Positions 16,441 to 64,000 of a stretch of DNA of 64,000 nt are shown piece after piece (position 1 is the first letter of the stretch; the number at the start of each line of letters is the position of its first letter). Made by a program: the position numbers and the translations under genes. Origin of the DNA: an uncultured bacterium (lineage in GTDB: Bacteria; Bipolaricaulota; Bipolaricaulia; UBA7950; UBA9294); contig CAIOGO010000008.1 in NCBI GenBank assembly GCA_903857865.1, forward strand, positions 12,292 to 76,291. Direction: 5' to 3'. Below the pieces are notes generated by a model. That model did not search any database. It was not told the DNA's origin and was given only the letters and a program-made list of their open reading frames with translations.

Positions 16441-16465
16441 ACCCTGCAGATCCCATCTCTATAAT
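16437..16465 (+). promoter_or_regulatory. candidate sigma70-type promoter for tRNA-Pro/dnaX
   Basis: TTGAAC (16437-16442), 17-nt spacer, TATAAT (16460-16465). Confidence 0.4.
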
Positions 16466-16472
16466 CGGCGGG

Positions 16473-16584
16473 ACGCGGGGAGCGGCAGAGCGAGGCCCCG
16501 CGAGCGAAGATTGGCGGAGCTAATCTCACGTCCGGGGAGCGGCAGAACGAGCTCCCGCGAGCGAAGATTGGCGGAGCTAGTCGC
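16473..16584 (+). repeat. two tandem 55/57-nt repeats immediately upstream of tRNA-Pro
   Basis: Units 16473-16527 and 16528-16584 share GGGGAGCGGCAGA...CCCGCGAGCGAAGATTGGCGGAGCTA. Each starts with a copy of the tRNA leader plus 5' acceptor (ACGTCCGGGGAG). Confidence 0.85.
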
Positions 16585-16589
16585 ACGTC

Positions 16590-16666
16590 CGGGGAGTGGC
16601 GCAGCCTGGTAGCGCGCCTGCTTTGGGAGCAGGAAGCCGCTGGTTCAAATCCAGTCTCCCCGACCA
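16590..16666 (+). tRNA. tRNA-Pro (anticodon TGG), CCA encoded
   Basis: Cloverleaf folded by hand: acceptor CGGGGAG/CTCCCCG, anticodon loop TTTGGGA, T-loop TTCAAAT, 3' ACCA. Confidence 0.93.
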
Positions 16667-16682
16667 GCAGGGGGTGAGAAGG

Positions 16683-20016: not shown

Positions 20017-20357
20017 AGAGAGGGTTAGAGAGACGCTGGCCGGTGGCGAAAGCGCCGGCTGGAGGAAAGTCCGGACTCCGAAGGGCGGACCACTGAGGAA
20101 ATCTCAGCGGGGGTGACCCTCGGGAAAGTGCAACAGAGAGTAGACCGCCGATGGCCCGGCGCAAGCCGGGATCAGGCAAGGGTGAAACGGTGGTGTAAGA
20201 GACCACCAGCGGCCCGGGCGACCGGGTCGGCTCGGCAAACCCTGGTCGGAGCAAGGCCAAGTAGGAAGGCGTCTGAGAACGGCCCGTTCGAGCCTTCGGG
20301 TAGGCCGCACAGATGAATGTCTCTCCGCGACAGAATCCGGCTTATCGACCCTCTCTC
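20016..20357 (+). ncRNA. rnpB: RNase P RNA, bacterial type A
   Basis: Universal blocks GGAGGAAAGTCCGGACTCC, AGTGCAACAGAGAGTAGACCGCCGATGGCC, GGGTGAAACGGTGGTGTAAGAGACCACCAG, ACAGAATCCGGCTTATCG. P1 pairs 20016-20025 with 20348-20357. Confidence 0.92.
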
Positions 20358-20482
20358 GCCCCGCGCCGTGACGCGCCCTCCCGGGATCCAGCGGCCCCAC
20401 AGCGCTGACACAACTGCGGTTGCTGCGTCGTGCAAGCCACCCTATACTTCCCTACGAAACGGATGAGGAGGCGGTGGGGACG

Positions 20483-23848: not shown

Positions 23849-23939
23849 CGTATCTTCCTCCGGAAGAGGAAACGCGTCAGACCTCAGGCCCGACGCGCGC
23901 TTGACCCATACAAACCGCGCCAACCGGGGTGGCGCGCTG

Positions 23940-24012
23940 TGGGCGCAGCAGGGCTCGAACCTGCGGCCTCTCGGATGTGACCCGAACGCTCTCCCAGCTG
24001 AGCTATGCGCCC
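23940..24012 (-). tRNA. tRNA-Val (anticodon CAC)
   Basis: Reverse complement folds as GGGCGCA acceptor, D-arm GCTCAGCTGGGAGAGC, anticodon loop GTCACAT, T-arm GCAGGTTCGAGCCCTGC. CCA not encoded. Confidence 0.93.
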
Positions 24013-46322: not shown

Positions 46323-46395
<73 letters not shown>

Positions 46396-46634
46396 CAACG
46401 CTATTCTGGACGCCGTTCTTGAGCCCTGTTCATGGGGCCTGGAGTCACTTTCCGACGAGCCGCAATGGAGTCAGATGTGGCTGCAGGCTCGGCCGTGGAA
46501 CTCCATCAGCTGCTCTGCACCTTCTCCGCCAGCTGTATCAAGGCTAGACTAACAGTGAGATGGTTCACTTCCGGACGTGAGGGCACATCCGAGACACTTG
46601 GTGCATTAGGTGACTGAGAAGGCCATTGCGACAA

Positions 46635-49600: not shown

Positions 49601-52600
49601 GGCAGGAAGCCAGTTCCGCGCCAAAGCGAAAGCGAGACTGCTCAAGAGCCCACAGAAGCAGCGCGCTGTGGAAGGGCAGGAGCCGCGCGCGCTGAGCTAC
49701 GAGGAACGCCAACAGGCCGAGCATTACCTCGACCACCGCTTGGGACCGCTCCTGGCGATGGCGCGGGCACTGTCGGCCATCCTTGCAGCGTCTTCTGGCG
49801 TAGTCGACAGAGCCTTCTTGGATCTGCTAGGGGTGTGGAAGGATGCTCGAAAGAGCCACGATTCATATCGAAGTGAGAAAGCCAGTCGCTTCTTCGAGAT
49901 GCTTGGCCTCGATGCGGCGCTCTTCGCGTTGTGGGCGCGTGGCGAGATCAGACCGGCATCTGTCGAATGCCTCCTCTCGACGATGCAGGACCAGGACGTT
50001 GGAGTCCAGTATCTCATCCGGCTCGTTTCGATTCTCGCAAGAAGACCTCACTTGCATGGTCTTGCTGGAGAGCTCGCGCTCAAGGCGCGCCAACATGTCG
50101 ACACCGAGCAGGACGTGGATTCCCGCGCATCGCTCTTCGCCAGTCTGGGTCGGGCCATGCTTCCCGCCAGCATTGATGAGGCAGCCACCTACTTCCGCAT
50201 GGGCCTTGAGCAGATGGATGCTATCGGTGCAGGGGACTATCGCTTCGTGCACGAGGTTCTCTCGTTCGCATCTGCGATCAAGGGCGGCGAGCTTGAGGAT
50301 CGTGACGTTCTCACCCTGGAAAGCATCTGTGAGCTCAACATGGGTGAGGAGGCGGAGAAGTTCACCTGGGGAGTGTACGGGCAGGCCATGTCCAAGTGCT
50401 CCGGTCTCAGAGGCCTGGCGACTCTGAGCAGGTGGGACGATCGCTCTCGGATCGCACTTCGCAGTACGCTGCTGCCCTATCTCACTGCACTGGTCGAAGA
50501 TGGAAAGCTTGCACCCGAGGATGCGCTCTCGCTCAATCATCTCGCTGCTCCCGCTGAGTACTGGGATAGCGGAACACGTGAGTTCGCGCGGGCCATCCGG
50601 GGCAAGGCCGGACCTGATCCGGAGGTTGTCTCTGAGCTCATCCAGCAATACGAGAAGAACAACCCAACAGCTCCGTGGGACGAGACCCTCCAGGCTCTTG
50701 CAGCCTTGGCGGAGGAAGCTTTCGGAGCATCTTCTGACACCGTCGGCCACCTCACCGCCGCTAGCGAGCGCTATGGCAGCACTCGTCATACGCTGAACGA
50801 ATACGGAAACTACAGCGGCGAGTCCGCATACAGAGAGCAGATGAGGGAGCGCGCGGACAATGAGCGGCAACAGGATCGCGCCAACGCAGAGAAGATTGGA
50901 GACGACGCCGATCCGACCGACAAGGCCTCGCTCTCTCGCGCAATCAGTGCTCTCAACGGACTGCAGTATGCCTACGACTTCAGGGCCGACTTCTTCTCCT
51001 CGATTCGCACCAGAGTCCCATTTGCCGAACACGCCAGGTACATCCACAACCTCTGCGATCTGGAGCACCTGTCGCTCCACTGGAAGCTGGCGGAGCTAGC
51101 AGAGTGCAAGCAGGGGTGGGGAAGATCCTCTGCTGCTCTCGGTCCGGCCCTACGGAGTGAAGCCATTCCCCTGATCGGGCTCCACGCTGATGACCTTCTG
51201 GGCGAAACTCTCGCCGGTTCGCAGATTGCGGAGATCTCCAACCTGACTGGGACACCAAGTTATGAGCTTGTCCTCGAGCTCATCCGAGTCGCTGCAAGGC
51301 GAAGGAGATCCGTCGCTGGTGCGGTCTGGCTTGCACTCGGCTCGTTTGTCTGTCCCCGTGCGAACGACGGCCAAGCTCGAGTCGCTCTGAGGCGCTTGCT
51401 CGGGAGTGATGCTGCGAAGCTTGCCGAGCGCGGCGCCAGCGAACGTTGCTCGGGTGGGCCTTACCCCACAGGCGACGTGCCGACGGTCGCGGCGGGACTT
51501 GTATGGAGAGCACTTGGGTCACCCTGCGCAGAGACGAGGTGGCACGCTGCCCACAGTGTCCGATGCTTCGCAAGGTTCGGACGATGGGAGGTTGTGGATT
51601 CGCTCGTCCGCCATCTCAACTGTAAAGATGCTGGGCCATTTCAGGCACCCGAACTCGCGTTCTACTATCTGCACGCCAGGCTTTGGCTCCTCATCTCGCT
51701 CGCTCGGACGGCGCTCGATCATCCCGAGGCGATCGCACGCTACAAGGATGACCTCACTTCACTCGTCATGGAAGAGCAATGGCCGCATGTTCTCATGCGC
51801 CACTTCGCCGCACGCGCGCTTCAGTCCTGCATCAATGCTGGAGAACTCACGTTGCCAGAGCCCGAGGAGAGGCAAGTGCGTACGATCGATCTGACGCCGC
51901 ATCCTCATCTGAAGGAGAGTGGGACGGAGCGCACAGATTCGTACCACAGTCGTCCGGATTCGATTCCGAGACCGGCTTTCGAGCTCCATTTCGACTACGA
52001 GTTCCACAAGCTTGATGTAGACAGCCTGGGCCGGGTTTTCGGCAAGTCATGCTGGGAAGTCGCCGATACGATCTCGTCGATCGTTCATCGGCTTGACCCG
52101 GCGGTGTCCAGCATGTACGACGCCGGTGGTCGTGACTCACCGCAGCGATACGGCTACTACGGCTTCGGCACGGAACATCACGGGTACGGCCAACAGCTTG
52201 GTTGGCACGCGCTCTTCATCGCTGCAGGCGAGTTCCTTAGGGCGCTTCCCGTCGTGGATAGTCCGTGGTACAACGAGGACGCCTGGGAGGAGTGGCTCGG
52301 CCGGTATCTTCTCACTCGAGAGGATGGACTCTGGCTTTCGGATGGCACGGACACCCAGCCATTGGATACAGCCAGCACTCTCCTTGAGAAAGGGACGAAG
52401 AGCCTCAAGATCACTGGGGCCCGAAAGAGACTCCTGCAACTAGCCGGAATCGGCGACGCTGTTGGAAAGGAATTGGTCGTCGAGGGGAGGTGGTTCTCTG
52501 CAGACGATATCGGCATCCACATCTCATCAGCGTTGGTTCCCCCAAGCAAGGCCAGGGTGCTTGCGCGAGCGCTGACTCGTGAAGAGCCCGTGATTGTCTG

Positions 52601-53102
52601 GATTCCCGTACTTGATGAATCCGAAAGCGACCTGGGCTACCGACAACAAGAGTACGCACCCTGGATCGTCTGCCCGTCCGGCGTCGCTCGGCTTGACGAA
52701 CACGATCCCTACGGAGCCACCGTTGCGAATCTCAGGCCGCGCCTGGCACGCGAGATCTTGAGCTTGTACTCGCTCAGGAGCCGTGATCCATTCGAGCGAG
52801 TCTGGTCTGACAAGCGAGACGCCGCAATGTTGCGTGCTGACGCATGGGGCCGCGACGAGACGGACGCTCGGCGAAGTCCACATCCAGGGCTACGCCTGAT
52901 CTGTGCCTCTCCTTTGCTCAGGAGGCTACTGACCAAGAGAGATCGGGACTTGCTTCTGCTCATCAAGCTCGAACGCCACGAGAAGAGGCATGGACAAGAC
53001 AGCGAATGGAGCCACACGATCGCCGTAGTTCGCATTGCTAAGACGCTTGACCTTGAGTACTTCGAGGGGCGCACGAACCATGCATACAGACCTGGGCGCT
53101 AG
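46635..53102 (+). CDS. giant STAND NTPase with N-terminal Cap4/DUF4297-like PD-(D/E)xK nuclease domain and about 1600-aa unassigned C-terminal region (Avs/bNACHT-like defence candidate)
   Basis: N-terminus GGDARVDSVRAFRAGHEYHEAW...IAVEGLSPVD...EIADLTLYY...VVQFKYS. Walker A GCGGIGKT (47532-47555), Walker B VILFIDAVD (47826-47852), GGNPRVLAHL. ATG 46635 (TTG 46626 also possible). Confidence 0.8.
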   Translation: MTGGDARVDSVRAFRAGHEYHEAWTVSLALQLLQLLRPDDDLVAIAVEGLSPVDQARASARAMEIADLTLYYGDGPSFEEASRVRVVQFKYSVADSDTDFRASHAKKTIEKFAVTYREGLEKYGASAVEEKLGFQLMTNRPIYAPLLRAVEAIAQGLPRTGEIAEQARQFKAHAQMHGAALAAFAAKFELSGRSGSLQGKKTEVSTLLADWSAASGQDLVVRARLGDLRELVRDKAGEKGAPQNCITRTDILAVLGVHDSDDMLPCKSALSDVGRVVERQQLTDAVTLISSLTIPLVIHGCGGIGKTVFMSSLAAKLAERDEVLFFDCFGGGAYRAIDEARHLPQSGLIHIANTLSFRGLCEPMLPGSSDARSLMRTFKRRLIQTIATISRTEPGREVILFIDAVDNAAIVAQERGDDCFPVQLLESLNDKPIPGLKVIVSCRTENKPSTYARYQEFELQPFTRLETKAFLRARLRTVSETEINVAQSRSGGNPRVLAHLAAGERGLLDQSEIEKKVELDELIQQRIDNAVDTAIKRGCTQGDINRFLAGLAVLPPPIPLDECASALGTDESAVKSFVSDLFPWLERFDQGIMFKDEPTETLIRQEYASSQELLRRVADNLFARQDESVYAARALPELLYRLDDGKRLFNLAFDGRIPAAITSAVGRRSIRYARLRAATLHAAEKRNADGLVKLLVELSTVAVSDQRGATYILEHPDLVVAARDADAMRRLFETRTGWPGARHARLTIANAVTGEFEEASRNASAAREWINHYRSQPDHARQRNDHGPERPDIAAIPLLLISESRAKNAANFLRGWQDWYAYEVCECVFEYSRLAQTIGTQSPRRLSRFVGELEGIGPLAAALSFSEIGRPRRKDLVEKLAGLCRKRTQLRISDSFAHNARYTLQDGLRKAAAMALALGLDAQALAIATRAPHQRPRVSSYRDVFYHSDVFPFLFHTALVAAVKEQPLHEKDVLPAELVPVCSAIRKSQAGSQFRAKAKARLLKSPQKQRAVEGQEPRALSYEERQQAEHYLDHRLGPLLAMARALSAILAASSGVVDRAFLDLLGVWKDARKSHDSYRSEKASRFFEMLGLDAALFALWARGEIRPASVECLLSTMQDQDVGVQYLIRLVSILARRPHLHGLAGELALKARQHVDTEQDVDSRASLFASLGRAMLPASIDEAATYFRMGLEQMDAIGAGDYRFVHEVLSFASAIKGGELEDRDVLTLESICELNMGEEAEKFTWGVYGQAMSKCSGLRGLATLSRWDDRSRIALRSTLLPYLTALVEDGKLAPEDALSLNHLAAPAEYWDSGTREFARAIRGKAGPDPEVVSELIQQYEKNNPTAPWDETLQALAALAEEAFGASSDTVGHLTAASERYGSTRHTLNEYGNYSGESAYREQMRERADNERQQDRANAEKIGDDADPTDKASLSRAISALNGLQYAYDFRADFFSSIRTRVPFAEHARYIHNLCDLEHLSLHWKLAELAECKQGWGRSSAALGPALRSEAIPLIGLHADDLLGETLAGSQIAEISNLTGTPSYELVLELIRVAARRRRSVAGAVWLALGSFVCPRANDGQARVALRRLLGSDAAKLAERGASERCSGGPYPTGDVPTVAAGLVWRALGSPCAETRWHAAHSVRCFARFGRWEVVDSLVRHLNCKDAGPFQAPELAFYYLHARLWLLISLARTALDHPEAIARYKDDLTSLVMEEQWPHVLMRHFAARALQSCINAGELTLPEPEERQVRTIDLTPHPHLKESGTERTDSYHSRPDSIPRPAFELHFDYEFHKLDVDSLGRVFGKSCWEVADTISSIVHRLDPAVSSMYDAGGRDSPQRYGYYGFGTEHHGYGQQLGWHALFIAAGEFLRALPVVDSPWYNEDAWEEWLGRYLLTREDGLWLSDGTDTQPLDTASTLLEKGTKSLKITGARKRLLQLAGIGDAVGKELVVEGRWFSADDIGIHISSALVPPSKARVLARALTREEPVIVWIPVLDESESDLGYRQQEYAPWIVCPSGVARLDEHDPYGATVANLRPRLAREILSLYSLRSRDPFERVWSDKRDAAMLRADAWGRDETDARRSPHPGLRLICASPLLRRLLTKRDRDLLLLIKLERHEKRHGQDSEWSHTIAVVRIAKTLDLEYFEGRTNHAYRPGR

Positions 53103-53314
53103 GCGCGCGCACCGGGCACGGACTGCGGCGAACACCTATGCTTCTTTGTGCTTGCAGTGTGAGGCGCGCCGCTCTGACACGTCAGGCGACGGCTCCCGCT
53201 CGTGGACCAACGCTGCGGTGCGAGCTGAAGCACAGAAGACGTAGACATCGACGCTGTGTTCTCACGATGCCGTGACTGGGAGGCACCCGTCACCACTCTG
53301 CGACGGTCACACGC

Positions 53315-53343
53315 GTTCTCTGATCGGTCCCCCAGGCTCCACA
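53315..53343 (+). repeat. 29-mer tRNA-3'-end-like repeat, copy A
   Basis: GTTCTCTGATCGGTCCCCCAGGCTCCACA, identical at 55793-55821 and 63733-63761. The ending GGCTCCACA matches the tRNA-Ala 3' end. Confidence 0.9.
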
Positions 53344-53444
53344 GGGACCACGGCTTCGCTGTTCTGGTCAGCGCTCTTCACCGCTGTCACCTACTTCCCC
53401 GCAGAGGGGCATCGGCGACAACGTAGACAGAATCCTCACTTCTT

Positions 53445-53461
53445 GGTTCGAGTCCCCTAGG
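53445..53461 (+). repeat. attR-like exact copy of the tRNA-Ala T-arm/acceptor segment
   Basis: GGTTCGAGTCCCCTAGG equals 46374-46390. Confidence 0.9.
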
Positions 53462-53661
53462 GTCGCGTGATGTGCATCACACTCGCTCCCGTAGCTGGAA
53501 TCCCTCCTTCTTCGTTTAACGATGGGCTCGGGGGCAGATCAAGCTGGGCGTAGTCCGGGTCCGTGCCGACGCAGCCTGTCATCTGCTGCAACCTGGGCGC
53601 AACCCCCAAGCGATCCCGATTTCGGATCCACCCTGGAGGTCTCACGGGAGCACGTCGGCGC

Positions 53662-55593
53662 CTACTGCTGCGACAGTGACGCTCTCAACTCCGAAAGGCG
53701 ACCGGTCAGTTCTCGGGCCTTCACAGTGCCGGGCTCATCACCGATGAATCGAGACAGCGCTTGCGCCTGCGCCGCCAAGTCCGAGAGCTTATCCAGCTCA
53801 AGACCTCTTCCCGAGCCAGCCTCGATCCTCCAGCGGATCACGTCACGGACGGAGTTTGACCAGGCGGTGATGTACCCAAGGCGCCGGTAGAGGTCCACCT
53901 GGTCTTCCGAGAGCTGCGCTTTCGTCAGCGCCGGTCTGCTCTCTAGCCGTATGTGCAAGCGCTTGGCATGCTGGCTTCCGAAGTAGTTGTCAGAGAAGTC
54001 GAAGTGCCTCTTGGCTCTCCACAGATGGAAGGCCGCCCAGCACCTAGCAATCCTCCAGACCTGCGTCCACCTTCCCCCGCGCTTGAGCGCCTCATGGAGG
54101 CTCTCTACTGCCTGGGCAGCAAGCAAGTGGAGGTTTCCCGCTGCGCTCGACAGCCGCTTCCTGCGCGGGACGGACTCGGGGCCAAATCCACAAGACCAGC
54201 ATACGACCGAGGCTCCAAGCAGGCGAACCCAGATCCCAAGCCACCGACCGCCAATAGCCGCCATCTGAGTCCACCAGGGGGATCCCCTGTCGGCGGCGCT
54301 ACCGCGCTGGGCCGCGGGTGAACGGACGCGTAGCAGTGACGCCCGTGTCTCGGCGAGACCGAGGCGCGCGCTGCTCAACTCGATCCGCTCTACTGCATCT
54401 TCGGAAGCTCTCAGCGCGGCGGTGTAGCCCTGCTCGGAGAGAGCGAGCGATTGGGCGGTGTGGGATTCGAGGAAGTGAGCTCGCGCCTTCGCTTTCTGAT
54501 ACCAGACCTGGTTTCGCAAGGATGGTCTGTCGTCTGCCATCCCCGCAAGCAGCGCGAGGGCGGCTGAGCCCGCCCCCACGTCAAGCGCTGCCAGACACGC
54601 CCACCTCGCCGCTTCGCCTGGCGGGAATGCACTCGTATCGACTGGCAGACTCCCGCATGGGCGCGCAGAGCTTTGGGAACCCCTTGGTTCCGGCTCCATG
54701 CTGACGGAGGCACGCTGTTCAAGAGAGAGCGTGGCAGACAGTCTCTGGAAGAACGGTACGGCATCTCCACACATGGCCACTGTCGATGGGAAGCCAAGGA
54801 TGCGTCTAGCATCTAGCGAGACGTCTGCATTCTGCCCGTGCAGATTCCAGTAGAAGCGAGACGCGCCCGCCTTAAGCAGCAACGGGCAGATGTCGAAGTC
54901 GAAGCCGCTGTACCCAAAGACGACGACGGTCTTGCCGTGGATGAGCTCTTTCAAGAGATCCCGCTTCCAGGGAGGAAGCGCGCGCTCTGCCGAGAGCGAG
55001 GAGACAACTGTGCGGGGTTCATCGATACTGCCATGGATCTTGAAGAGAGGAGGCAGTGCCGGGGACCATGAGTCGAGCTGTCTCTCCTCGAAGATGCGGG
55101 TGTTCTCCCGCGCAGCTGGCGTCCAGCACTGCTCGATGAGGGTATCATAGTTCGTCGTCACAATGGCCGAGGCAGCAGGCGGAGAAGCCGCAAGGCAACC
55201 TGCAAGCGTCGAGTGTATCTTGTTGCTCGTTCCAGACGCGAGGTTTCGCACCAGGAACTGCTGGACCGGGCCCTCGCCTATCTGGGCATCATAGATGTCC
55301 AGCAAGCCCTCAAGGGGGACACCGTGGACTTGGAGTCGTTCCTGCAAGCCAGGAACGGGAAGCTCGCAGCCTCCGAGCGCGGCAGCAAGGGTCGCTGCAA
55401 GGTCAACGGGAAGTGTCCGGAACGTGTCCGATCCGATGAGCATAGCAGCCAAGCTTCGCCGGAGCTCCTCACCAGTCGGGAGACAGGCCGGCGGAGGCTT
55501 GGAAACACCCGCGCCGATGAAGAACACGAGATCTTGCGGAGGCACCGCAGCGATTTCGTCGACGAGATCAGTGTTACTGGGGTAGTCTGCCAC
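53662..55593 (-). CDS. SIR2_2-domain protein with unassigned alpha-helical C-terminal half (defence-associated sirtuin candidate)
   Basis: LVFFIGAGVS, VTTNYDTLIEQ, LFKIHGSIDEP, VVVFGYSGFDFDI. GTG 55593 lies 5 nt after GGAGG. Confidence 0.8.
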   Translation of the reverse strand: MADYPSNTDLVDEIAAVPPQDLVFFIGAGVSKPPPACLPTGEELRRSLAAMLIGSDTFRTLPVDLAATLAAALGGCELPVPGLQERLQVHGVPLEGLLDIYDAQIGEGPVQQFLVRNLASGTSNKIHSTLAGCLAASPPAASAIVTTNYDTLIEQCWTPAARENTRIFEERQLDSWSPALPPLFKIHGSIDEPRTVVSSLSAERALPPWKRDLLKELIHGKTVVVFGYSGFDFDICPLLLKAGASRFYWNLHGQNADVSLDARRILGFPSTVAMCGDAVPFFQRLSATLSLEQRASVSMEPEPRGSQSSARPCGSLPVDTSAFPPGEAARWACLAALDVGAGSAALALLAGMADDRPSLRNQVWYQKAKARAHFLESHTAQSLALSEQGYTAALRASEDAVERIELSSARLGLAETRASLLRVRSPAAQRGSAADRGSPWWTQMAAIGGRWLGIWVRLLGASVVCWSCGFGPESVPRRKRLSSAAGNLHLLAAQAVESLHEALKRGGRWTQVWRIARCWAAFHLWRAKRHFDFSDNYFGSQHAKRLHIRLESRPALTKAQLSEDQVDLYRRLGYITAWSNSVRDVIRWRIEAGSGRGLELDKLSDLAAQAQALSRFIGDEPGTVKARELTGRLSELRASLSQQ

Positions 55594-55792
55594 ACTCACC
55601 TCCGCCGGGAGACTCCAAGAGGATATCAACCTGATCCCCCAAGACTGAACCGCGGCATCAGGTGAACCTCTCACCTTGACGTACCTACAGCGTGGAGGAG
55701 CCAAGGTGGCCGCATTGTAGATCGGAACGGCGAATGCGGGTCTTGGCTGGCATGATGTGGACCCGGATTACCAGCGAGCGACGGCCACTCGA

Positions 55793-55821
55793 GTTCTCTG
55801 ATCGGTCCCCCAGGCTCCACA
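55793..55821 (+). repeat. 29-mer tRNA-3'-end-like repeat, copy B
   Basis: Identical to 53315-53343. Followed at 55847-55876 by a second repeat type (GTTCTGGTTACAGTCATGCAGGCTCCACAG). Confidence 0.9.
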
Positions 55822-56102
55822 CTACCACTCTGTAGTCAGAACGAAGGTTCTGGTTACAGTCATGCAGGCTCCACAGCCCGTGTATTCTCGTTCCCTTCTG
55901 CCGTTTCCGCCTTCGCGCTAAGGCTGTCAGCCCGTTGTTGGTGGGAACGCTGTGTAGCCGCCAAGGAGATGCGAGCAGTTGCGCTGCCCAGGATCCAGGG
56001 GTTCGCCACGATGCTCGCAGACAAGCAGAATCTCACGGCCCCTCCGCCAACTGGTGATACAACTCTCGGCTCACCCGACTGGCGGCCGTGCAGATTGCCA
56101 GC

Positions 56103-58040
56103 CTAATCTGAGAGGCCAACCCTCCTGAGAAGGTTGGTATACCGAGGATCCGAGCGGACGGAGGCAAGATGGGAGTCCATCTTCATCGACGAGAGCTGGG
56201 GATCGCGTTCAGCGTACGCGCGCTCGAGAAGCTCGAATCCCTCTTCATTCCGACCCAGCGCGAAGTGAAAAAGAGCGACCAAATAGGGCGAGAGCGGTTC
56301 CGTCTTTGCGTGTTCAAGAACCGTGTTCAGCGACGCCTCAATGGCGCCGCTATCCCCCTTGGCTTCCCGGACGGCAGCGAGGCAGAGCTCAAGTTCCGGA
56401 TCGAAAGACCCTGCGAGCTCCCGCGCTCTCTCAAGGTCGGCCTGAGCCAGATCCAGCCGCCCTTGCTGTAGGTAGATCTCCCCACGCCACGCGCGCAGAA
56501 CGCGATTGTCCTCTCCGAGCGCGAGCTGCATGTCGTATTCAGCAAGCGCCAGGTCTAGCTGCCCGGCGCTCTGGTAGGCATTCCCGAGGGCACCGTGCTG
56601 CACGGCGGACAGAGGGTCGAGCGTCTGAGCCGTCATGAGCGCGGCGATTGCCTCATCAGATCGTCCGCACGTGGAAAGATACAGTCCAAGCCAGTGATGG
56701 GCCAGCGCGTAGCTGGGCGAGAGTTCAATCGCCCTGCGCAACTCCCTCTCCACTCCTTCTAGGTCGAACTCCCAAGAGAGGATGCCCGCAAGCGCAACGT
56801 GGGCCTCCGCCAGATTGGGGTCAAGGGTCAGTGCTTCAAGTGCACTCGCCTTCGCCTTGGGAACCACGTCAGCGAGCGCCATGGGTTCGTAGTTGGGCAG
56901 GACCGCGTATGCGATGGATAGCGCCGCGTGGGCTGCAGCGTGCCCGGGGTCGAGCTCGATCGCTCGCTCAAAGCACTCGATAGCGTTGCGGATATTGCCG
57001 GTGGACCTGCGACTCATGAAGCCGCGGCCCTTCAAGTAGGACGCGTAGGCTTCCGGATTCGCTTTCGCCGGCTCGCCGGCCGGCCGCATGGCCCTCGGCA
57101 CGAGCTGGACTTCTAGAGCTGTGGCAACGCTGCGAGCAACCTCACTCTGGACCACGAACACGTCATCCAACGTGCGATCGTACGTCTCCGCCCACAGATG
57201 GGCCTCGCGTGCGACATCGATGAGTTGGAGAGTGATCCGCAGGCGATTCCCCGCTTTGCGGACACTCCCCTCGAGAACCACACCGACGCCCAGCTCGCTG
57301 CCGACCTCCGACACTGCTTTCTTTGCACCGCGGTACTTCATCACCGACGTAAGGGCGATCACCTCGAGTCCGCTTACTCTCGATAGGGTGAAGATCAACT
57401 CCTCGGTCAGCCCGTCGGCGAAGTACTCATCTCCTGGTTCTGGGCTCATGCTCATCAGTGGCAGGACGGCGATGCGGGACGACTCCCCTGCTGGGTGCGC
57501 CGGAGCCTCGTTCCGCATCCAGGGGAGGAGCATCTTGTAGACCTCGATCGAGACCTTCACGTTCTTGAGATCCTTCTTGCCGAGGCTCGCCATGGGGAGG
57601 TCCGTCTTGTTCCAGACTTGGTCGTAGACCTGACGGGAGAGACAGATTCCTCCAGGTTCAGCCAGCGGCTCGATGCGCGAAGTGATGTTCACCCCGTCAC
57701 CGAAGATGTCGCCGCCCCGGTGAACGACATCTCCGAGGTGAATGCCGATACGCAAATGGATGGCGCGGTCAAGAGGGACCGCGCCGTTGCGCTCGTGGAG
57801 GGCCCGCTGGATCTCAACAGCGCAGCGGACAGCCTGAAGGGCGCTGGGGAATTCGACGAGAAACCCGTCTCCTGTGCCTTTCACCTCGCGGCCTTCGTGC
57901 TCGGCGAACAAGGGGCGAAGGAGTCGCGCGTGTTCTTCGAGGAGTGCCAGAGTCAGGGCTTCGTCGGTCTGGGTAAGCGCTGTATACCCGACAACGTCCG
58001 TCAGCATGATAGCTGCAAGCTGTCGAGTGTCCTTGTCCAT
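56103..58040 (-). CDS. class III adenylate/guanylate cyclase fused to a TolB-N-like module and TPR repeats
   Basis: IMLTDVVGYTAL, KGTGDGFLVEF, RIGIHLGDV, GDGVNITSRIE, then TPR-like repeats. ATG 58040 preceded by AAGGAGAG. Confidence 0.88.
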   Translation of the reverse strand: MDKDTRQLAAIMLTDVVGYTALTQTDEALTLALLEEHARLLRPLFAEHEGREVKGTGDGFLVEFPSALQAVRCAVEIQRALHERNGAVPLDRAIHLRIGIHLGDVVHRGGDIFGDGVNITSRIEPLAEPGGICLSRQVYDQVWNKTDLPMASLGKKDLKNVKVSIEVYKMLLPWMRNEAPAHPAGESSRIAVLPLMSMSPEPGDEYFADGLTEELIFTLSRVSGLEVIALTSVMKYRGAKKAVSEVGSELGVGVVLEGSVRKAGNRLRITLQLIDVAREAHLWAETYDRTLDDVFVVQSEVARSVATALEVQLVPRAMRPAGEPAKANPEAYASYLKGRGFMSRRSTGNIRNAIECFERAIELDPGHAAAHAALSIAYAVLPNYEPMALADVVPKAKASALEALTLDPNLAEAHVALAGILSWEFDLEGVERELRRAIELSPSYALAHHWLGLYLSTCGRSDEAIAALMTAQTLDPLSAVQHGALGNAYQSAGQLDLALAEYDMQLALGEDNRVLRAWRGEIYLQQGRLDLAQADLERARELAGSFDPELELCLAAVREAKGDSGAIEASLNTVLEHAKTEPLSPYLVALFHFALGRNEEGFELLERAYAERDPQLSSMKMDSHLASVRSDPRYTNLLRRVGLSD

Positions 58041-58234
58041 GACCTCGCTCTCTCCTTCTTGTCCGGCAGTATGGGATCTCGGGCGTGCCGCGGCAAGTAG
58101 AGACCAGCTCCAGCTCACGCTCCCGCAAAGGAACTGTTGGGGTTGGCAGGAACGAGGTGGGCGCGGACAGCCTATAGTCCCCCAATGAGGAGGCATGACC
58201 TGGCTGGCGCTGCCACCTTGCGATCAGGACGAGA

Positions 58235-58264
58235 GTTCTGCTTGCAGTCATGCAGGTTCCACAG
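58235..58264 (+). repeat. 30-mer repeat related to 55847-55876
   Basis: GTTCTGCTTGCAGTCATGCAGGTTCCACAG, 27/30 identical to the copy at 55847-55876. Confidence 0.8.
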
Positions 58265-58371
58265 AGATTGCTCGTCCTGGTCTGAGTTTCGTCCCTTCGT
58301 CGCAGCCACCCACCGCTCATGTCGGGTGAGTCTTGCGAGTGACCTGCCCTGTACGCTAGCGACCGGTTCGG

Positions 58372-59487
58372 TCACGGGCAGAGGGCGAAGAGCACGTCTC
58401 GCGCGAGCACCATCTGGAAGAGACGCCTCGGCTCATCACCGATGGGTCGGACGGTGAGGGTCAGGTCCGACCCCTCGACGTTCGCTGCGGTCATCGTGAA
58501 GGCGACCTGCGAGTAGGGCTGCCCTCCCTGGGCGCTCGCGCCGAACTCGGCCAGACCTCGCCGGAGAGGAAGATCGGAGTCCGCGGAGGCCGGGTCGAGA
58601 AAGCGCAAGACGAAGGTCCCGACGGGCACATCACCGTCGTAGCGGTACGCCACTCCAAACGCGGTGAAGAAGTGAAGGCCGGCCCGCTCGGCCAGAAGCG
58701 CGTTCAATGCAGCGTACAAACCCTGTGGGTCGCTCGCATGGATGAATGACTGGAGTACAGAGTCGGGGGACAGGATCGAGCAGGCTCCCGGGCCGATCAC
58801 CAGGATCGCCGACGCCACGCCCTGCAGTCGGCCGGTCAGCCCCTGAGCCGCTGCATCCTCGCTCAGAGTCGGGATCTCTCCTCGATAGGCGCTCAACGCC
58901 TCGTCCAGAGCCGCCGCAGACGATGACAGGATGAGCAGCCCGTCCTCGGCCACAACGGCCGTATTGAGGATGGCCAGTTCACTCTTGGCCAGCCATGCTG
59001 CCCCGAAGTCAAGCGGGTGCGAGTAGACCGCCACGCCGTGCGACTCCGTTTGCGTGAACCCGCGCTGCTCGAACAGGGACACGAGTAGGCCAAACTGGAA
59101 CCCAGCAGCGAACTTCAGCACGTAGACAGACATCGCCGTGCCATTTGTGAAGTTGGCCTCCCACTGGAGGTCGCTGCTCCGCCATCCCCAAAGCGCGGCT
59201 TGGTCCGGGTGGTTCGCTCCGAAGGCAGAGGCGGCGGCCTGGCCTCGGCCGAGACTCGTGGTGAGTGCCCTCTCCGCGTCCTCGGGGCTCTGCTGGAAGG
59301 CCGCATCGAACCCAACGTAGCCCTTGAGCACAGTCCAGTCCGTGAAGTAGACGGTCGCTGAGACTGACCCTGCCGGGACGAGCGACAGCACGTCGAGGAG
59401 CGGTGAGGAGTTGGCCACGTCCTCGCCCAGTACGCCGACCGCGCCCGCCGCCACAACGAGGAGCAGGAAGAAGATTGATGCCTTCAT
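58372..59487 (-). CDS. hypothetical secreted protein
   Basis: ATG 59487 preceded by GGAGGTG. Signal peptide MKASIFFLLLVVAAGAVGVLG. No family recognised. Confidence 0.6.
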   Translation of the reverse strand: MKASIFFLLLVVAAGAVGVLGEDVANSSPLLDVLSLVPAGSVSATVYFTDWTVLKGYVGFDAAFQQSPEDAERALTTSLGRGQAAASAFGANHPDQAALWGWRSSDLQWEANFTNGTAMSVYVLKFAAGFQFGLLVSLFEQRGFTQTESHGVAVYSHPLDFGAAWLAKSELAILNTAVVAEDGLLILSSSAAALDEALSAYRGEIPTLSEDAAAQGLTGRLQGVASAILVIGPGACSILSPDSVLQSFIHASDPQGLYAALNALLAERAGLHFFTAFGVAYRYDGDVPVGTFVLRFLDPASADSDLPLRRGLAEFGASAQGGQPYSQVAFTMTAANVEGSDLTLTVRPIGDEPRRLFQMVLARDVLFALCP

Positions 59488-59965
59488 CACACCTCCGTAC
59501 CACTGGCCGACAGCACGCACCATTGGCATCCTCCTCACCACCTGCGACGCTCTCCGGTCACGATCTCTCTCAGGTGCCGCTCTGCTGTGCAGGGCGAATG
59601 CGATCCCACGTTCCGCTGACCTGCCCGCCAGAGCGTCGGATCTCTCGATCCGAGCTGCCCCACCATAAGCACTGCTGGCCAGTCACTGCAAGTGCTGCGC
59701 GTAGCCCGCGTCTGGGCCAGCCGGACACCCTGCTGCATGGCTGAACCCTCTACGCCCGGCAGGTGCGTGACGTCTTGTCGCTGTTGGCGGAAGCTGCTAA
59801 CTTCTCCTGCGACGCGGACCGCACGCGGGGCAGGTCAAGATGGCCTCGATCGTCCAGCTGAGAAGGCCATGAGTTGGTCCGACGGAGAGCGGCTGACGTC
59901 CTCACCAGCGCCGGTGGACAATGGCTCTTGGTGAACTGAGCGAGAGAGGTCATGGAGGACAGCAC

Positions 59966-60742
59966 ATGAAGAAGGTCACTGCGTTCGTTGGAAGCGCCCG
60001 CAAGAAGCACACGCACGACGCCGTCTGCCGGTTCCTGGACCACCTGCAGGCGCGGGGTGACGTCGAGTGCGAGATCGTCGCTCTGAGCGACTACCGGCTC
60101 GAGGTCTGTCGCGGCTGCAAGCTGTGCTTCGAGAAGGGGGAGGAGGCGTGCCCTCTCAAGGACGACCGGGACACGCTCATCGCGAAGATGGTCGCGTCCG
60201 ACGGCGTCGTCTTCGCATCCCCGAACTACCTGTTTCAGGTCTCCGCCATCATGAAGACCTTCCTCGACCGGCTCGCCTTTTTTGCCCATCGCCCGCGCTT
60301 CTTCGGAAAGACCTTCACCAACATCGTCGCCCAAGGGTTCCCCTTCGACAGCAAGATTGGGAAGTATCTGAACTTCGCGGGCGCCTGCCTCGGGTACAAG
60401 ACCGTTGGCGGAAGCCACATCACGGCCCTTGAGCCGATGACGGAGAAGGAGGCGCGAAAGGTCGACAGGGTCCTTGAGAGGCACAGTAGGCGGTTCCACC
60501 AAAGTCTGATGCGGTCGAACCTCCCTGCGCCGTCGTTCGTCATGCTCATTGGTTTCCGGATCGGCCGCACGACGCTGAGGCTCGAGCTGGACGATCGAAA
60601 CTTCGACTACAGGTACTACCGAGACAAGGGTTGGTTCGACTCCGACTACTACTATCCCGTTCGCTTGGGTCCGCTGAAGAAGGCGGCAGGCAGCCTCTTC
60701 GATGCGCTCGGCAGGAGGATGGCGAGAAAGAGAACGGGATGA
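59966..60742 (+). CDS. NAD(P)H-dependent FMN reductase / iron-sulfur flavoprotein-like oxidoreductase
   Basis: MKKVTAFVGSARK flavodoxin-like start, CRGCKLC...C cysteine cluster, VFASPNY. RBS GGAGGA. Confidence 0.75.
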   Translation: MKKVTAFVGSARKKHTHDAVCRFLDHLQARGDVECEIVALSDYRLEVCRGCKLCFEKGEEACPLKDDRDTLIAKMVASDGVVFASPNYLFQVSAIMKTFLDRLAFFAHRPRFFGKTFTNIVAQGFPFDSKIGKYLNFAGACLGYKTVGGSHITALEPMTEKEARKVDRVLERHSRRFHQSLMRSNLPAPSFVMLIGFRIGRTTLRLELDDRNFDYRYYRDKGWFDSDYYYPVRLGPLKKAAGSLFDALGRRMARKRTG

Positions 60743-61203
60743 GGTGAAGAGGGGCGCGATGGGCAGGCCCTGCGATCACGCATCCGAGACCACGCGCCCT
60801 GCCCTCCGAGAGCACGACGACCGCTTTTCGTCGCCGCAATAGAAGCCTTGACCCTCAGGCGTGAACCGGGGAGACGCCGAGTATCGCGGCTCGATCCGCG
60901 CAACCGTGGGACTCTCGTACGACGAGAGCTGGGTTCCCGAGTGGCGCACTCAGTTCTGCGACGTCAGTCTCCCGCGTCCGACATCGACCCGGACGAGACG
61001 CAGACGTTCGAGATGTCGATCCCCGTGCTTCCGCCGGCGGCGATCGAGATTCTCCGACAGCAAGCCGTGCTCTACGGCTATCAGGACCCGGATCACGATC
61101 ACGACTACCACGGGTTGCGCATCCCTGCAGGGACGCGGCACCACTGCACGTTCATGCCGTTCGGCGAGTAGCAGCCGGGCGCTGCTAGCGGGAGCCGTTC
61201 CCA

Positions 61204-61278
61204 GATGCCCGAACTCGGCTGGAAAGCACTTGCTGGGCATGCAAGAGACCAGGGGTTCGAGCTACCCCCTAGGCTCCA
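61204..61278 (+). pseudogene. degenerate tRNA-Ala copy (pseudo-tRNA / old att site)
   Basis: Aligns over nearly the full length of tRNA-Ala. The block GCATGCAAGAGaCCAGGGGTTCGAG is conserved. The acceptor 5' strand is mutated and there is a 2-nt insertion in the T-arm. Confidence 0.65.
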
Positions 61279-61550
61279 CCAAGGCAGAAGCGCGATCCGA
61301 TGGCCGTTCCCGCTTCACACAACGCTGCCTCTGCCTGCGAGTGCCATCGGTTCTGCTGACCAACCCGTCAAGGAGCACCGGACTCCCCCATTCTGAGCTG
61401 CCGGCTCGCGGCAACAGGGGGGGCGCTCCAGATCACCAAGTGCGTTCCTCCTGCTTCGTGCGCGTGGCAGACAGGCGAGCGTTGCGGCAAGACCTGGCCG
61501 GCCAACCCAGGGAGCCTCGAAGACAGGTTGATGGCAGTCTCACGAGTCGC

Positions 61551-63128
61551 CTAGCGTCTCCTCATTGACCGTCGAACCGAGTTCCTAGCTCTGGCCGCCG
61601 TCTTGCCTGGGGCCATCCTTGCTCCTGGGCTTGAAGAAGGCGAGACGGCCCTAATGCCGCGGATCAGGAGTGTCGCGCCGACTCCCAGCAGAAAGGGGAG
61701 GAATGCCAGCAGCAGTCTTTCAAGCCTCAGCATCTGTTCACTCGAGAACACGGCCACGAAGTCCCCCTGCCCTGCGGGCAGGCTGAAATCCAGTCGGTAA
61801 TAGCCGCGCCACGGCGACTCGGCCTCGGGCCCCTCAGCCACGCGACACTGCACTGGCTGGGCCGAGCACATCTGCAATACGTAGTCCGCCGGCACGTAGA
61901 GGAAAAGCGTCAGCGGACTTGCGTTGGCGCGGGCGTCAGGCGGCTGGAGGGAGGGCGAAGCAATCGGCAGTACGAGCCTCGTCTGCGAGAGCGTTGGTCG
62001 CGACAGAGCGGCCTTCCAGATGACCCAGGCAAACCGCTGACAGGGAACGGCCTCGACTGCATCCAGCGGGATGCCAAGCTCGGTAGCGTTCCAGTAGCAC
62101 GACCGCAACGAGAAGTCAGGGTAGAGCGAGAAACACTGTCCAGGAATCTGCCGCCGGGCCATATGCGGCACGACCACGCCTGGCAGAAAGGCTATGAGAG
62201 AGGAACAGGGTGATGGCATCGATGCGACGTTGTCAACACCTATTCCAAGGTCGACGTCAGAGATGCCGGGGCTGAGCACGATGGCTACCGACACCTGCGG
62301 CGCGAGGCCGCAGTCGGTGGCGAAAGACATCCGTGACACCGCGGAGTACGGCGTGCTAGCCGATTTCGGAAACAGGACCAGGACCAGTGCCACGCCAGCG
62401 AGGCCGAGAAGCGCGGCGCCGAGCGAGAACTCCCGCGACGCCGCCACGGCATGCGCGAGCCACTTCCACAGGCGGGCGGGAGTCCAGGGACTTCTCACGC
62501 AGTCCAGAAGCCAGTCATGCAGAACAAGCCACGCTCCGGCCAGTATCGCAGCACCGCTGAGCGTATATGGCAACTGGACATAGGCCTGAGAGGGCAAGTA
62601 GAGCGGCACACCAAGCCCAAACAGAAGGAGCGCACCGATTGGCCTCGCTCTCCAAGCGATGAGCGCACTCAATCCCACGGCCACGCCAATGCCCCAGTCC
62701 GGCAGAGCCATCGGCAGTCCGGGTGACCAGAAGTAGAGACCAGCAACCAGCCAAGCAGCGGAGCATCCATAGAGCAACCCGAACCCCAAGCGGCGTCTCC
62801 AGGCGCGGGGCCTTGTGCGCCTCAGAAGGACCGCCGCCCCGCATGCGACACCGGCGGAAGAGGCAATCCACTGGGGCGAGACCCTCCCCAACAGAGGGGC
62901 GAACACGAGAGCGACTGCTGCAAGCATCCCCCCGCACACGACAGCCGTTCTGAGCGGCCCCCTCACACGTTGAGCACTCGGGGTCGGGGCAGCAATCGCT
63001 GTGAGGAAGAGCAGGCCGAGGCCGCCAACGAATTCGCTACACGACAGGAGGTAGAACGCTACACCAATGCACACGACGATAGATGTAGCGGCCGTCGAGA
63101 TGCCGAGGATCCGCAGAAGACGAGTCAT
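61551..63128 (-). CDS. hypothetical polytopic membrane protein with large non-membrane domain and C-terminal TM anchor
   Basis: ATG 63128. About 9 N-terminal TM helices, a Cys-containing soluble domain of about 200 aa, a final TM helix and a basic tail. Confidence 0.55.
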   Translation of the reverse strand: MTRLLRILGISTAATSIVVCIGVAFYLLSCSEFVGGLGLLFLTAIAAPTPSAQRVRGPLRTAVVCGGMLAAVALVFAPLLGRVSPQWIASSAGVACGAAVLLRRTRPRAWRRRLGFGLLYGCSAAWLVAGLYFWSPGLPMALPDWGIGVAVGLSALIAWRARPIGALLLFGLGVPLYLPSQAYVQLPYTLSGAAILAGAWLVLHDWLLDCVRSPWTPARLWKWLAHAVAASREFSLGAALLGLAGVALVLVLFPKSASTPYSAVSRMSFATDCGLAPQVSVAIVLSPGISDVDLGIGVDNVASMPSPCSSLIAFLPGVVVPHMARRQIPGQCFSLYPDFSLRSCYWNATELGIPLDAVEAVPCQRFAWVIWKAALSRPTLSQTRLVLPIASPSLQPPDARANASPLTLFLYVPADYVLQMCSAQPVQCRVAEGPEAESPWRGYYRLDFSLPAGQGDFVAVFSSEQMLRLERLLLAFLPFLLGVGATLLIRGIRAVSPSSSPGARMAPGKTAARARNSVRRSMRRR

Positions 63129-63375
63129 CGGATGGCGACTCCGTTTCCATTGAGGGGCCGTATCCCTGCCGCAGATCTTTCTCCCAGACTGGTCCGCACC
63201 ACTTGGCCGGCTCGCCAGGGTGCGCGGACAGCGTTCGTCTCGCCTGCTCACATCTCGCCTCTCCTCCACTCTACTGTGACTGCCTCCGCAGGTGAAGGGA
63301 GCCGCGCGACGAAGTCCAGGACGGGCTATCGATCTACCTTCTAGAAGCAAGTTGGAGGAGCTGCTAATCGGGCGG

Positions 63376-63620
63376 TTGATGTGTGGGAGTTCCGAGGACA
63401 CAGTACCTGACTCGTGGGCTTCGGACCTCGTCTCCTCGGGCGGAGAACACGTCCCGTCAGTTGCCTAGGGTCTGCGAGGAAGGACTCACTTCCAAGCGGT
63501 CGGTCAGTGCGCGCGTGCTTCCTGAACTCAATGAACGCGTCTTCCTCCTGAAGCAGGAACGAATGGCGATCTGTGATGTCGGCAAGTATCTCGGGCGGTA
63601 CAGCCAGCAGATCGTCCTTC
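63376..63620 (-). pseudogene. possible remnant of the C-terminus of a RayT/IS200-like (Y1) transposase-family protein
   Basis: FIEFRKHARTDRPLGSESFLADPRQLTGRVLRPRRRGPKP resembles the ...TRTGRPLGS..F...LE...GR.L.P...GPKP tail recalled from that family. No catalytic part is present. Confidence 0.3.
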
Positions 63621-63732
63621 CCGGCGGAAGGGTCGCATCCTACTTCTCTACACCTCCAGGCGACCATGGGTCGCGTTCGCGCTTGTGTGCTGGGAGACGT
63701 GCATTCGTCACCACTCCGCGACGGCCACATGC

Positions 63733-63761
63733 GTTCTCTGATCGGTCCCCCAGGCTCCACA
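63733..63761 (+). repeat. 29-mer tRNA-3'-end-like repeat, copy C
   Basis: Identical to copies A and B. About 27 nt upstream are also shared with copy A (GTCACCACTCyGCGACGGyCACAyGC). A further related site GATCGGTCCCCTAGGGTC lies at 63803-63820. Confidence 0.9.
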
Positions 63762-64000
63762 GCGCCGGGATACCCGTTCCCATCAGAGATGTCTGGTTCT
63801 TAGATCGGTCCCCTAGGGTCTGGGGTCCGTAGATTCCTCGCTATGGAAGGCCGTTCCCTGTAGCTGGCCGGCTCCCCCGGTGACTGCGCACCGAATGAGC
63901 TGGCTTGCAGTCGATGCCTCGAGGGCGGCTTGCCAGGGTTCTCCACATTCCTGACCCGCCTTCCGCACAGGGAAGAGGTAGAACTGCTGCTGTCGCCCCG

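Follow-up and report, generated by a model that had tools for sequence, protein, structure and literature searches.

A gene-cassette array that probably formed by site-specific recombination at the 3′ end of a tRNA-Ala(GGC) gene in a Bipolaricaulota chromosome

Sites, junctions and cargo downstream of tRNA-Ala(GGC)

A 64,000-nt stretch of DNA from an uncultured bacterium of the phylum Bipolaricaulota (contig CAIOGO010000008.1, positions 12,292 to 76,291; hereafter the window) carries a tRNA-Ala(GGC) gene followed by a series of short repeated sites that separate small groups of genes. The tRNA gene (46323–46396, + strand) was called by ARAGORN and by Rfam (64.5 bits) and has the 3′ end GTCCCCTAGGCTCCACA. 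It heads the series on the same strand as the sites, upstream of the interval from 53315 to 63820 in which a first-pass annotation had described serial tRNA-Ala-derived repeats. Its sequence and position make it the likely primary attachment site. The locus as a whole is probably a chromosomal gene-cassette array produced by site-specific recombination at the tRNA 3′ end, with the recombinase supplied in trans.

The 29-mer GTTCTCTGATCGGTCCCCCAGGCTCCACA occurs in three exact + strand copies that start at 53315, 55793 and 63733 (expected by chance, 0 in 100 shuffles), and no further copies with three or fewer mismatches were found in the window. A pair of 30-mers was confirmed at 55847 and 58235. 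The 29-mers, the 30-mers, a pseudo-tRNA and a degenerate copy were all recovered where the first-pass annotation had placed them. The repeats are longer than first reported and form units of 55–62 nt. Three units have 62 nt (53283–53344, 55761–55822 and 63701–63762) and two have 55 nt (55822–55876 and 58210–58264), and the two kinds are homologous to each other. Numbered by position on the + strand, site 1 (53283–53344; nhmmer E = 1.2e-14) consists of a left arm (53283–53314) and the exact 29-nt core (53315–53343). Site 2 (55761–55822) has the same exact core (55793–55821) and a left arm unlike that of site 1. Site 3 (55822–55876) is a hairpin variant that abuts site 2 as an 'empty' 54-nt unit, and the pair of sites 2 and 3 is also found in two other loci (L098 and L113; loci outside the window are cited by L numbers). 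Site 4 (58210–58264) is the second hairpin-variant copy, and site 5 (63701–63762) contains the third exact core (63733–63761). Every site is intergenic, between called genes, and none was found in the remaining 46 kb of the window.

Each cassette consists of a left end, one to three cargo genes in either orientation, an arm of about 30 nt (TCACCAC...ACGAACGC-like) and a core of about 27 nt (GTTCT..GTCCCCCAGGCTCCA). The last 15–17 nt of the core copy the T stem and the acceptor 3′ strand of the tRNA. The 3′ end of the site is identical to that of the window tRNA-Ala(GGC) gene at 16 of 17 positions, with a single-base difference. All five window units fit the formula GTTCT-N7-GTC-N3-CAGGYTCCACA, and the near-invariant core across the family is GTTCT-N7-GTC-N3-CAGGCTCCA. 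The family consensus reads ..GACAYCCA TCACCAC nnn GC nAC GnAC GAACGC GTTCTACATTCAGTCCCCCAGGCTCCA[C/A]A. Conservation is moderate in the left 30 nt or so, where the arm differs from cassette to cassette, and nearly complete across the 27 nt that run from GTTCT to CTCCA. Core subtypes include TACATTCAG, TCTGATCGG and the hairpin type. The only dyad in the site is GAAC/GTTC at the boundary between arm and core. The exact 29-nt core is identical in other genomes (L040, L050, L054, L058, L079, L099 and L113) and so owes its exactness to constraint no less than to recent activity. The first-pass annotation had offered selection or recent activity as the explanation.

Three further elements of the window resemble the tRNA or the core. 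A degenerate partial core, GTTCTTAGATCGGTCCCCTAGGGTC, which shares 84% identity with the 25-nt reference, lies on the + strand at 63796–63820, 35 nt past site 5. It belongs to the left end of the following cassette, and L048, L073, L070 and L099 conserve it as well. A second tRNA-Ala-like fragment, TTCGAGTCCCCTAGGGTC, lies at 53447–53466 (+), 104 nt past site 1. This fragment recurs at a fixed distance of 101–104 nt after the site at 16 junctions, which are found in the window and in L039, L050, L051, L054, L059, L070 (twice), L072, L073, L079, L088, L099, L107 and L112. It reads GGTTCGAGTCCCCTAGGGTC and contains the palindrome CCCTAGGG, and the spacer between it and the site is poorly conserved. 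A spacing of about ten helical turns would suit an accessory subsite, which is our conjecture. The region from the site to the second fragment was also considered as a structured RNA, a reading that was rejected when no structure was detectable.

The third element is a decayed tRNA-Ala copy (approximately 61204–61278, +) that occupies the junction of cassettes 5 and 6 in place of a cassette site. Over 41 nt it shares 88% identity with the real tRNA. The 5′ acceptor strand is lost, the T loop carries an insertion and the copy ends ...CTCCACCA; the flank after it (..CCGTTCCC..) is of the usual post-site kind. It was called by neither ARAGORN nor Rfam (E ≤ 1). A called 235-aa open reading frame (ORF; 60861–61568, +) without a Pfam match spans this copy and is probably not a real gene. 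The earlier statement that the repeats fall in intergenic gaps thus holds for all sites and fails for the pseudo-tRNA, which lies inside this possibly spurious ORF. A comparable arrangement is seen in L129, where an AbiEi/AbiEii module (15283–17325) lies between tRNA-Ala and a copy of about 55 nt of the tRNA 3′ part that ends in CCACCA, with no arm-plus-core site. This long fragment makes a second type of junction, like the window pseudo-tRNA. A DUF4389 cassette was seen in two settings: between a site and tRNA-Ala, upstream of the tRNA, in L107 (5740–7737) and between two sites in L051 (1524–3848).

Cassette 1 (46397–53282) contains a single gene for a 2158-aa NACHT/STAND NTPase (46626–53102, +; Pfam NACHT). 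This first module (46397–53343) was added to the modules listed in the first-pass annotation because the tRNA heads the array. Cassette 2 carries a SIR2_2-domain protein (53662–55704, −; Pfam PF13289, 2.7e-13), for which the called gene has 643 aa and starts at 55593. Cassette 4 spans 55876–58263 and encodes a protein with adenylate/guanylate cyclase and TPR domains by Pfam (56103–58196, −). Cassette 5 has two genes, one for a 389-aa protein with no family match (58372–59541, −; 91.5% DNA identity to L098 2890–4149) and one for an NADPH-dependent FMN reductase (59921–60742, +; Pfam PF03358, 1e-21). Cassette 6 encodes a 525-aa membrane protein predicted from the translation (61551–63128, −), which has an exact match in a gene catalogue, on the 87.5-kb source contig. 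The 'transposase remnant' proposed for 63341–63760 did not hold up, being an ORF without a Pfam match. Mrr and a second NACHT gene lie just past the end of the window. The G+C content of the window cassettes is 0.60–0.64, compared with 0.658 ± 0.015 for the core genome. Outward from the tRNA across 46397–64000 the values are 0.600, 0.622, 0.619, 0.640 and 0.634, with the NACHT cassette beside the tRNA the lowest. The rise with distance from the tRNA is weak and would fit a newest cassette placed at the tRNA.

Cargo across the loci is extremely diverse. A Pfam census found 193 families in 136 non-redundant cargo proteins, with no family in more than two proteins. As regards replication or packaging modules of the kind that tRNA islands carry, none of the top 25 families listed is recurrent. 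Named cargo includes zinc alcohol dehydrogenase (Zn-ADH), SDR, GNAT, beta-lactamase fold, histidine kinases, AbiEi/AbiEii, HNH, WD40, PycTM and CHAT, and many modules are defence-like. The remaining RNA genes of the window lie in its core part: class A RNase P RNA (20017–20360, +; 268.6 bits), tRNA-Pro(TGG) (16590–16666, +) and tRNA-Val(CAC) (23939–24012, −). No cassette sites lie beside tRNA-Pro(TGG) or tRNA-Val(CAC) in the window. A core-like 17-mer, GTTCTACATGCAGTCAC, was seen at approximately 9520–9560 of L122, inverted and beside the 3′ end of an apparent tmRNA gene; its nhmmer E value of 0.04 means that it may be a chance match.

Distribution of the site family and cassette polymorphism

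Pattern scans and a profile search were used to define the family. A scan of GTDB with one genome per species gave four true relatives, all metagenome-assembled genomes (MAGs) labeled Bipolaricaulota or Thermotogae, and 20 other matches that were due to chance. Each matching GTDB genome had one matching stretch. A scan of metagenomes returned 76 contigs, all true family members. The profile search found 171 sites in 73 non-redundant loci, and the sites are co-oriented in 72 of the 73. Site spacing has a median of 1.9 kb (interquartile range 1.1–3.1 kb, minimum 54 nt, maximum 10 kb). The only locus with an inverted site is L084, where one site (2664–2724) is on the + strand and the other three are on the − strand; an inversion between sites could account for this. 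There were no true matches in IMG/VR, in INPHARED/GenBank phages or in PLSDB plasmids, and a phage or plasmid origin was rejected. A claim of conservation across distant phyla was also toned down: the 'Thermotogae' labels are unverified MAG names, and leucyl-tRNA synthetase (LeuRS) places the window in Candidatus Bipolaricaulota.

The arrays are tied to one tRNA gene. In contigs with a LeuRS 65–87% identical to that of the window, the upstream gene order is metS, thiS, S8 peptidase, PGM, leuS, HAD and tRNA-Ala, and the gene content downstream of the tRNA is wholly different in each. Sites follow tRNA-Ala downstream of leuS-HAD in five Bipolaricaulota MAGs (L121, L125, L126, L127 and L128). A tRNA-Ala(GGC) gene in the same position heads the arrays of L048, L059, L068, L072, L079, L098, L113, L121 and L125–L128, and wherever a contig includes the array start, the array begins at this tRNA. 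The only tRNA genes in the 76 metagenome loci are eight tRNA-Ala(GGC) genes, each on the site strand and each heading an array.

This distribution bears on whether the site is a dispersed repeat, resembling miniature inverted-repeat transposable elements or repetitive extragenic palindromes, that is dense here by chance. The unit is indeed short, intergenic and repeated, and it is a frequent break point of assemblies (for example, contigs L062, L074 and L109 end there). Against this stand the 46 kb of the window free of copies and the single stretch per matching GTDB genome, together with the co-orientation of the copies, their lack of terminal inverted repeats and their coincidence with homology breakpoints. 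The dispersed-repeat explanation is very improbable. Genome-wide dispersal had been raised in the first-pass annotation as a finding that would speak against an array; in all sequence examined (contigs and MAGs, no closed genome), sites were seen solely in co-oriented, tRNA-linked arrays.

The modules also vary independently among relatives, with breakpoints at the sites, as comparison with L098 demonstrates. The leuS flanks of L098 and the window are 92% identical at the nucleotide level over 3.9 kb, and the modules that follow differ. The L098 array runs tRNA, Zn-ADH, site, hairpin-variant site, mini-unit and a homologue of window 58251–59723. The window array runs tRNA, NACHT, site, SIR2, site, hairpin-variant site, cyclase-TPR, hairpin-variant site and the gene shared with L098. 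The NACHT cassette is missing from L098, and the Zn-ADH cassette stands there. The cyclase cassette (55876–58263) is missing as well. In L098 the local copy of site 3 and a 23-nt mini-unit lead straight into the sequence found after window site 4, so that the cyclase cassette and one site form a clean insertion when the window is compared with L098. A third arrangement is found in L113; the flanks of the window, L098 and L113 are 82–92% identical at the nucleotide level and their cassettes differ.

The breakpoints of homology between loci were compared with the positions of the sites. Twenty-three of 162 breakpoints lie no more than 10 nt from the 3′ end of a site, where 1.4 were expected and the maximum in 1000 randomizations was 7. 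L092 is a mosaic whose left cassette is shared with L114 and whose right cassette is shared with L104, with the two joined within the core. The left arm travels with the left cassette, and the bases past CTCCA travel with the right cassette. The tRNA 3′ end takes part in the same exchanges. The sequence that follows the tRNA in L048 is the sequence that follows window site 5, which ends at 63762, and this flank also follows sites in L070, L073 and L099. The post-tRNA sequence in L072 belongs to a common post-site class. The 3′ ends of the tRNA and of the site thus serve interchangeably as crossover points.

The same breakpoints might be produced without a dedicated recombinase if the repeats were protein-binding, insulator or terminator elements and the cassettes were swapped by RecA-dependent recombination on this portable homology after DNA uptake. 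Identity over 27–60 nt can support homologous exchange at low frequency, and no dedicated recombinase was found near the arrays. In the hairpin variant, which is confined to the 55-nt sites, a stem of 13 bp shows compensatory changes. No structure was seen, however, in the D1 and main-type sites, and the nearly even orientation of the cargo (95 ORFs on the site strand and 67 on the opposite strand) speaks against a role as promoter, leader or terminator. This explanation also leaves unaccounted for the mimicry of tRNA-Ala by the core, the start of the arrays at the tRNA and the identity of post-tRNA and post-site flanks, and we regard it as unlikely.

Several other identities were considered for the site and rejected. 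The motif 'GACAT', the reverse complement of ATGTC, lies next to many copies and, together with the minus-strand genes of the window, raised a 5′ leader or promoter for opposite-strand genes, which was rejected on the 95/67 orientation count. One minus-strand frame is open through the motif, and a coding sequence was rejected since subtype changes are non-synonymous and multi-base and do not fall at third positions. A known RNA family was rejected, as the Rfam matches are to tRNA only.

Proposed mechanism and candidate recombinase

The features described above would fit the following mechanism for the probable cassette array. Two co-oriented cores would recombine and excise a cassette as a circle. 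The site on the circle would then recombine either with the tRNA 3′ end or with any resident core, and the cassette would be inserted. Insertion at the tRNA would regenerate the tRNA, because the core copies its last 15–17 nt, and would displace older cassettes outward. The crossover would most likely lie in AGGCTCCA, the stretch of 8 nt on the 3′ side of the sole difference between sites (C) and tRNAs (T). The T is kept in all but one of approximately 13 tRNA-Ala copies read, the exception being the tRNA of L107, which has C in the T stem. Retention of the T in tRNAs where the sites have C suggests either that exchange at the tRNA takes place within the adjoining AGGCTCCA or that other products are selected against. 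Occasional copies of the tRNA may be carried into arrays and then decay, as at 61204–61278 of the window (compare L107).

Recombinase genes were sought with phmmer and hmmsearch, using lambda Int, P4 Int, XerC, the window recombinase, a four-sequence profile and a serine recombinase as queries against the window and six-frame ORFs of all array loci (approximately 0.5 Mb). No tyrosine recombinase was found in the array loci, and the only serine recombinase was a large one in L052. Neither an integrase nor a recognizable fragment of one was present in the approximately 170 units. The first-pass annotation had proposed to look beyond the 64-kb end for an integrase, and none was found in the 9 kb past the window. 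With no recombinase upstream of the tRNA, in those 9 kb or in any array locus, a cis-encoded enzyme was rejected as a candidate. The array recombinase, being neither in the cassettes nor beside the array in the sequence searched, must presumably act in trans.

The only recombinase gene in the window (5785–6402, +) lies 40 kb upstream of tRNA-Ala and encodes a 205-aa tyrosine recombinase that consists of the catalytic domain only (Pfam PF00589, 1.9e-31). It is Xer-like in NCBIfam, far below the cut-offs, and scores 71 bits against the integron-integrase model, which has a cut-off of 265. More than 120 homologues share 72–96% identity with it, nearly all of them 202–206 aa long and several from named Bipolaricaulota, and the protein is more conserved than LeuRS. 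It is only a candidate for the trans-acting array enzyme. It may be the dimer-resolution enzyme of the lineage, the array recombinase or both.

The lack of integrases bears equally on an origin of the array by tandem accretion of once-autonomous islands, tycheposon- or prophage-like, that have lost their own integrases and left the repeats as attR scars. Tandem islands with partial-tRNA separators, including islands at tRNA-Ala(GGC), are documented for tycheposons. In L119 a truncated integrase abuts tRNA-Ala, and long tRNA fragments serve as junctions in L129 and at window 61204–61278. On the other side, an integrase or a recognizable piece of one is kept in 0 of about 170 units, the median unit is 1.9 kb and some units are empty at 54 nt. 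The 30 nt or so upstream of the tRNA-like part are conserved where LeuRS is only 65–70% identical, and the core is invariant, which would be unexpected for decaying scars. We consider accretion of islands quite unlikely. The first-pass annotation had preferred serial integration and had offered a cassette-like array on a tRNA-derived recombination site as its alternative. The alternative fits better, given approximately 170 sites, no cassette integrase and a conserved arm that is not derived from the tRNA.

Several observations weigh against a cassette array built by site-specific recombination. No recombinase is linked to the sites. No clear inverted pair of binding sites flanks an overlap in the core. 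Relatives also differ at places within cassettes, away from the sites (window 59723 versus L098 2775), and processes other than site exchange therefore also act. Sites are missing from the 7.5–9 kb read past tRNA-Ala in L119 and L129. In L119, the closest of the relatives on large contigs (LeuRS 87% identical), the truncated and frameshifted remnant of a small tyrosine-recombinase gene (13746–14069, −) abuts the 3′ end of tRNA-Ala (13657–13731). Beyond the remnant are a Dam methylase, NOV_C and an SNF2 helicase, with no cassette sites in the next 9 kb. The only relatives found for this remnant (L122–L124) are themselves fragmentary or frameshifted and lie elsewhere in the genome than at tRNA-Ala.

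Comparison with integrons, tRNA islands and Xer-dependent modules

Integrons are the textbook case of cassette capture, and tandem tRNA islands are the textbook case of accretion borne by integrases. The array resembles integrons in its length and co-orientation, its cassettes of mostly one or two genes with one site each, its diverse cargo, its fixed insertion point at the head and the absence of recombinases from the cassettes. Unlike integrons, it has no intI beside it; upstream are leuS, a HAD hydrolase gene and tRNA-Ala, and a functional tRNA gene takes the place of attI. The sites lack RYYYAAC/GTTRRRY boxes and an attC-like hairpin, and the cargo genes point both ways. An attC-like fold was rejected on three measures. 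RNAalifold gave 0 kcal/mol on both strands, a hairpin with TCACCAC in the loop, which by eye had seemed to covary, scored −2.36 compared with −2.34 for a control with shuffled partners, and DNA folding z-scores of D1 and main-type sites ranged from −0.2 to +2.3. Of three integron features tested, an adjacent intI and the attC sequence and fold are absent, and a diverse array of recombinase-less cassettes is present.

Tycheposons have seven tRNA targets, among them tRNA-Ala(GGC). They encode a tyrosine or large serine recombinase of their own, in many cases together with replication genes, and a genome has one or two of them. The array shares with them integration at a tRNA 3′ end, tandem units, partial-tRNA separators and a presumed outward displacement of older units by newer ones. 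It differs in that the units are integrase-less, about 2 kb long and numerous, with a conserved non-tRNA arm and an invariant core. Among the features of tRNA islands, 3′-end integration with direct repeats is found here and an integrase encoded by each unit is not.

Two other kinds of element share part of this anatomy. The ssrA-linked islands of Dehalococcoides are arranged in tandem at one small-RNA gene with direct repeats of its 3′ end, in a lineage of the uncultured type; each has a serine recombinase, and they are much larger. Xer-dependent modules (integrative mobile elements exploiting Xer, IMEX, and the pdif modules of Acinetobacter) lack a recombinase and are moved in trans by a host tyrosine recombinase that acts on short conserved sites. 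The pdif sites, found on plasmids, are XerC/XerD dyads of 28 bp that border modules with alternating orientation; a site of the dif type has two inverted 11-bp arms around a 6-bp centre, on which the host XerC/D acts. The sites described here differ from pdif in being co-oriented, in mimicking a tRNA and in lacking a dif-like dyad. Compared by eye with E. coli dif, the core matches at about half of the positions and lacks the dif dyad; the phylum's own dif may differ. Full-text searches of an incomplete literature collection returned no published description of Bipolaricaulota arrays or of any comparable tRNA-anchored array of integrase-less cassettes.

A broader reading is conceivable, and we advance it tentatively, as somewhat short of an even bet. 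The arrays may be a phylum-wide Bipolaricaulota platform, integron-like in function and independently built, with tRNA-Ala(GGC) as the insertion site and integrase-less cassettes that carry a site of about 60 nt recognized as double-stranded DNA, sometimes with a subsite about 103 nt away. Its recombinase would be encoded in the core genome, act in trans and possibly be the 205-aa enzyme. The signature of tRNA-Ala(GGC) followed by GTTCT-N7-GTC-N3-CAGGCTCCA could be used to mine metagenomes for cassettes and to seek the recombinase. The locus combines the two textbook cases, in that integrase-less cassettes are stockpiled at a tRNA gene, and their site family is conserved throughout a candidate phylum that is known chiefly from metagenomes. 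If the cassette-array interpretation is true, cassette arrays would have evolved more than once, with different site chemistry, and the locus would account for the storage of much of the Bipolaricaulota pool of accessory and anti-phage genes (NACHT, SIR2, cyclase-TPR, AbiE, PycTM, CHAT and Mrr).

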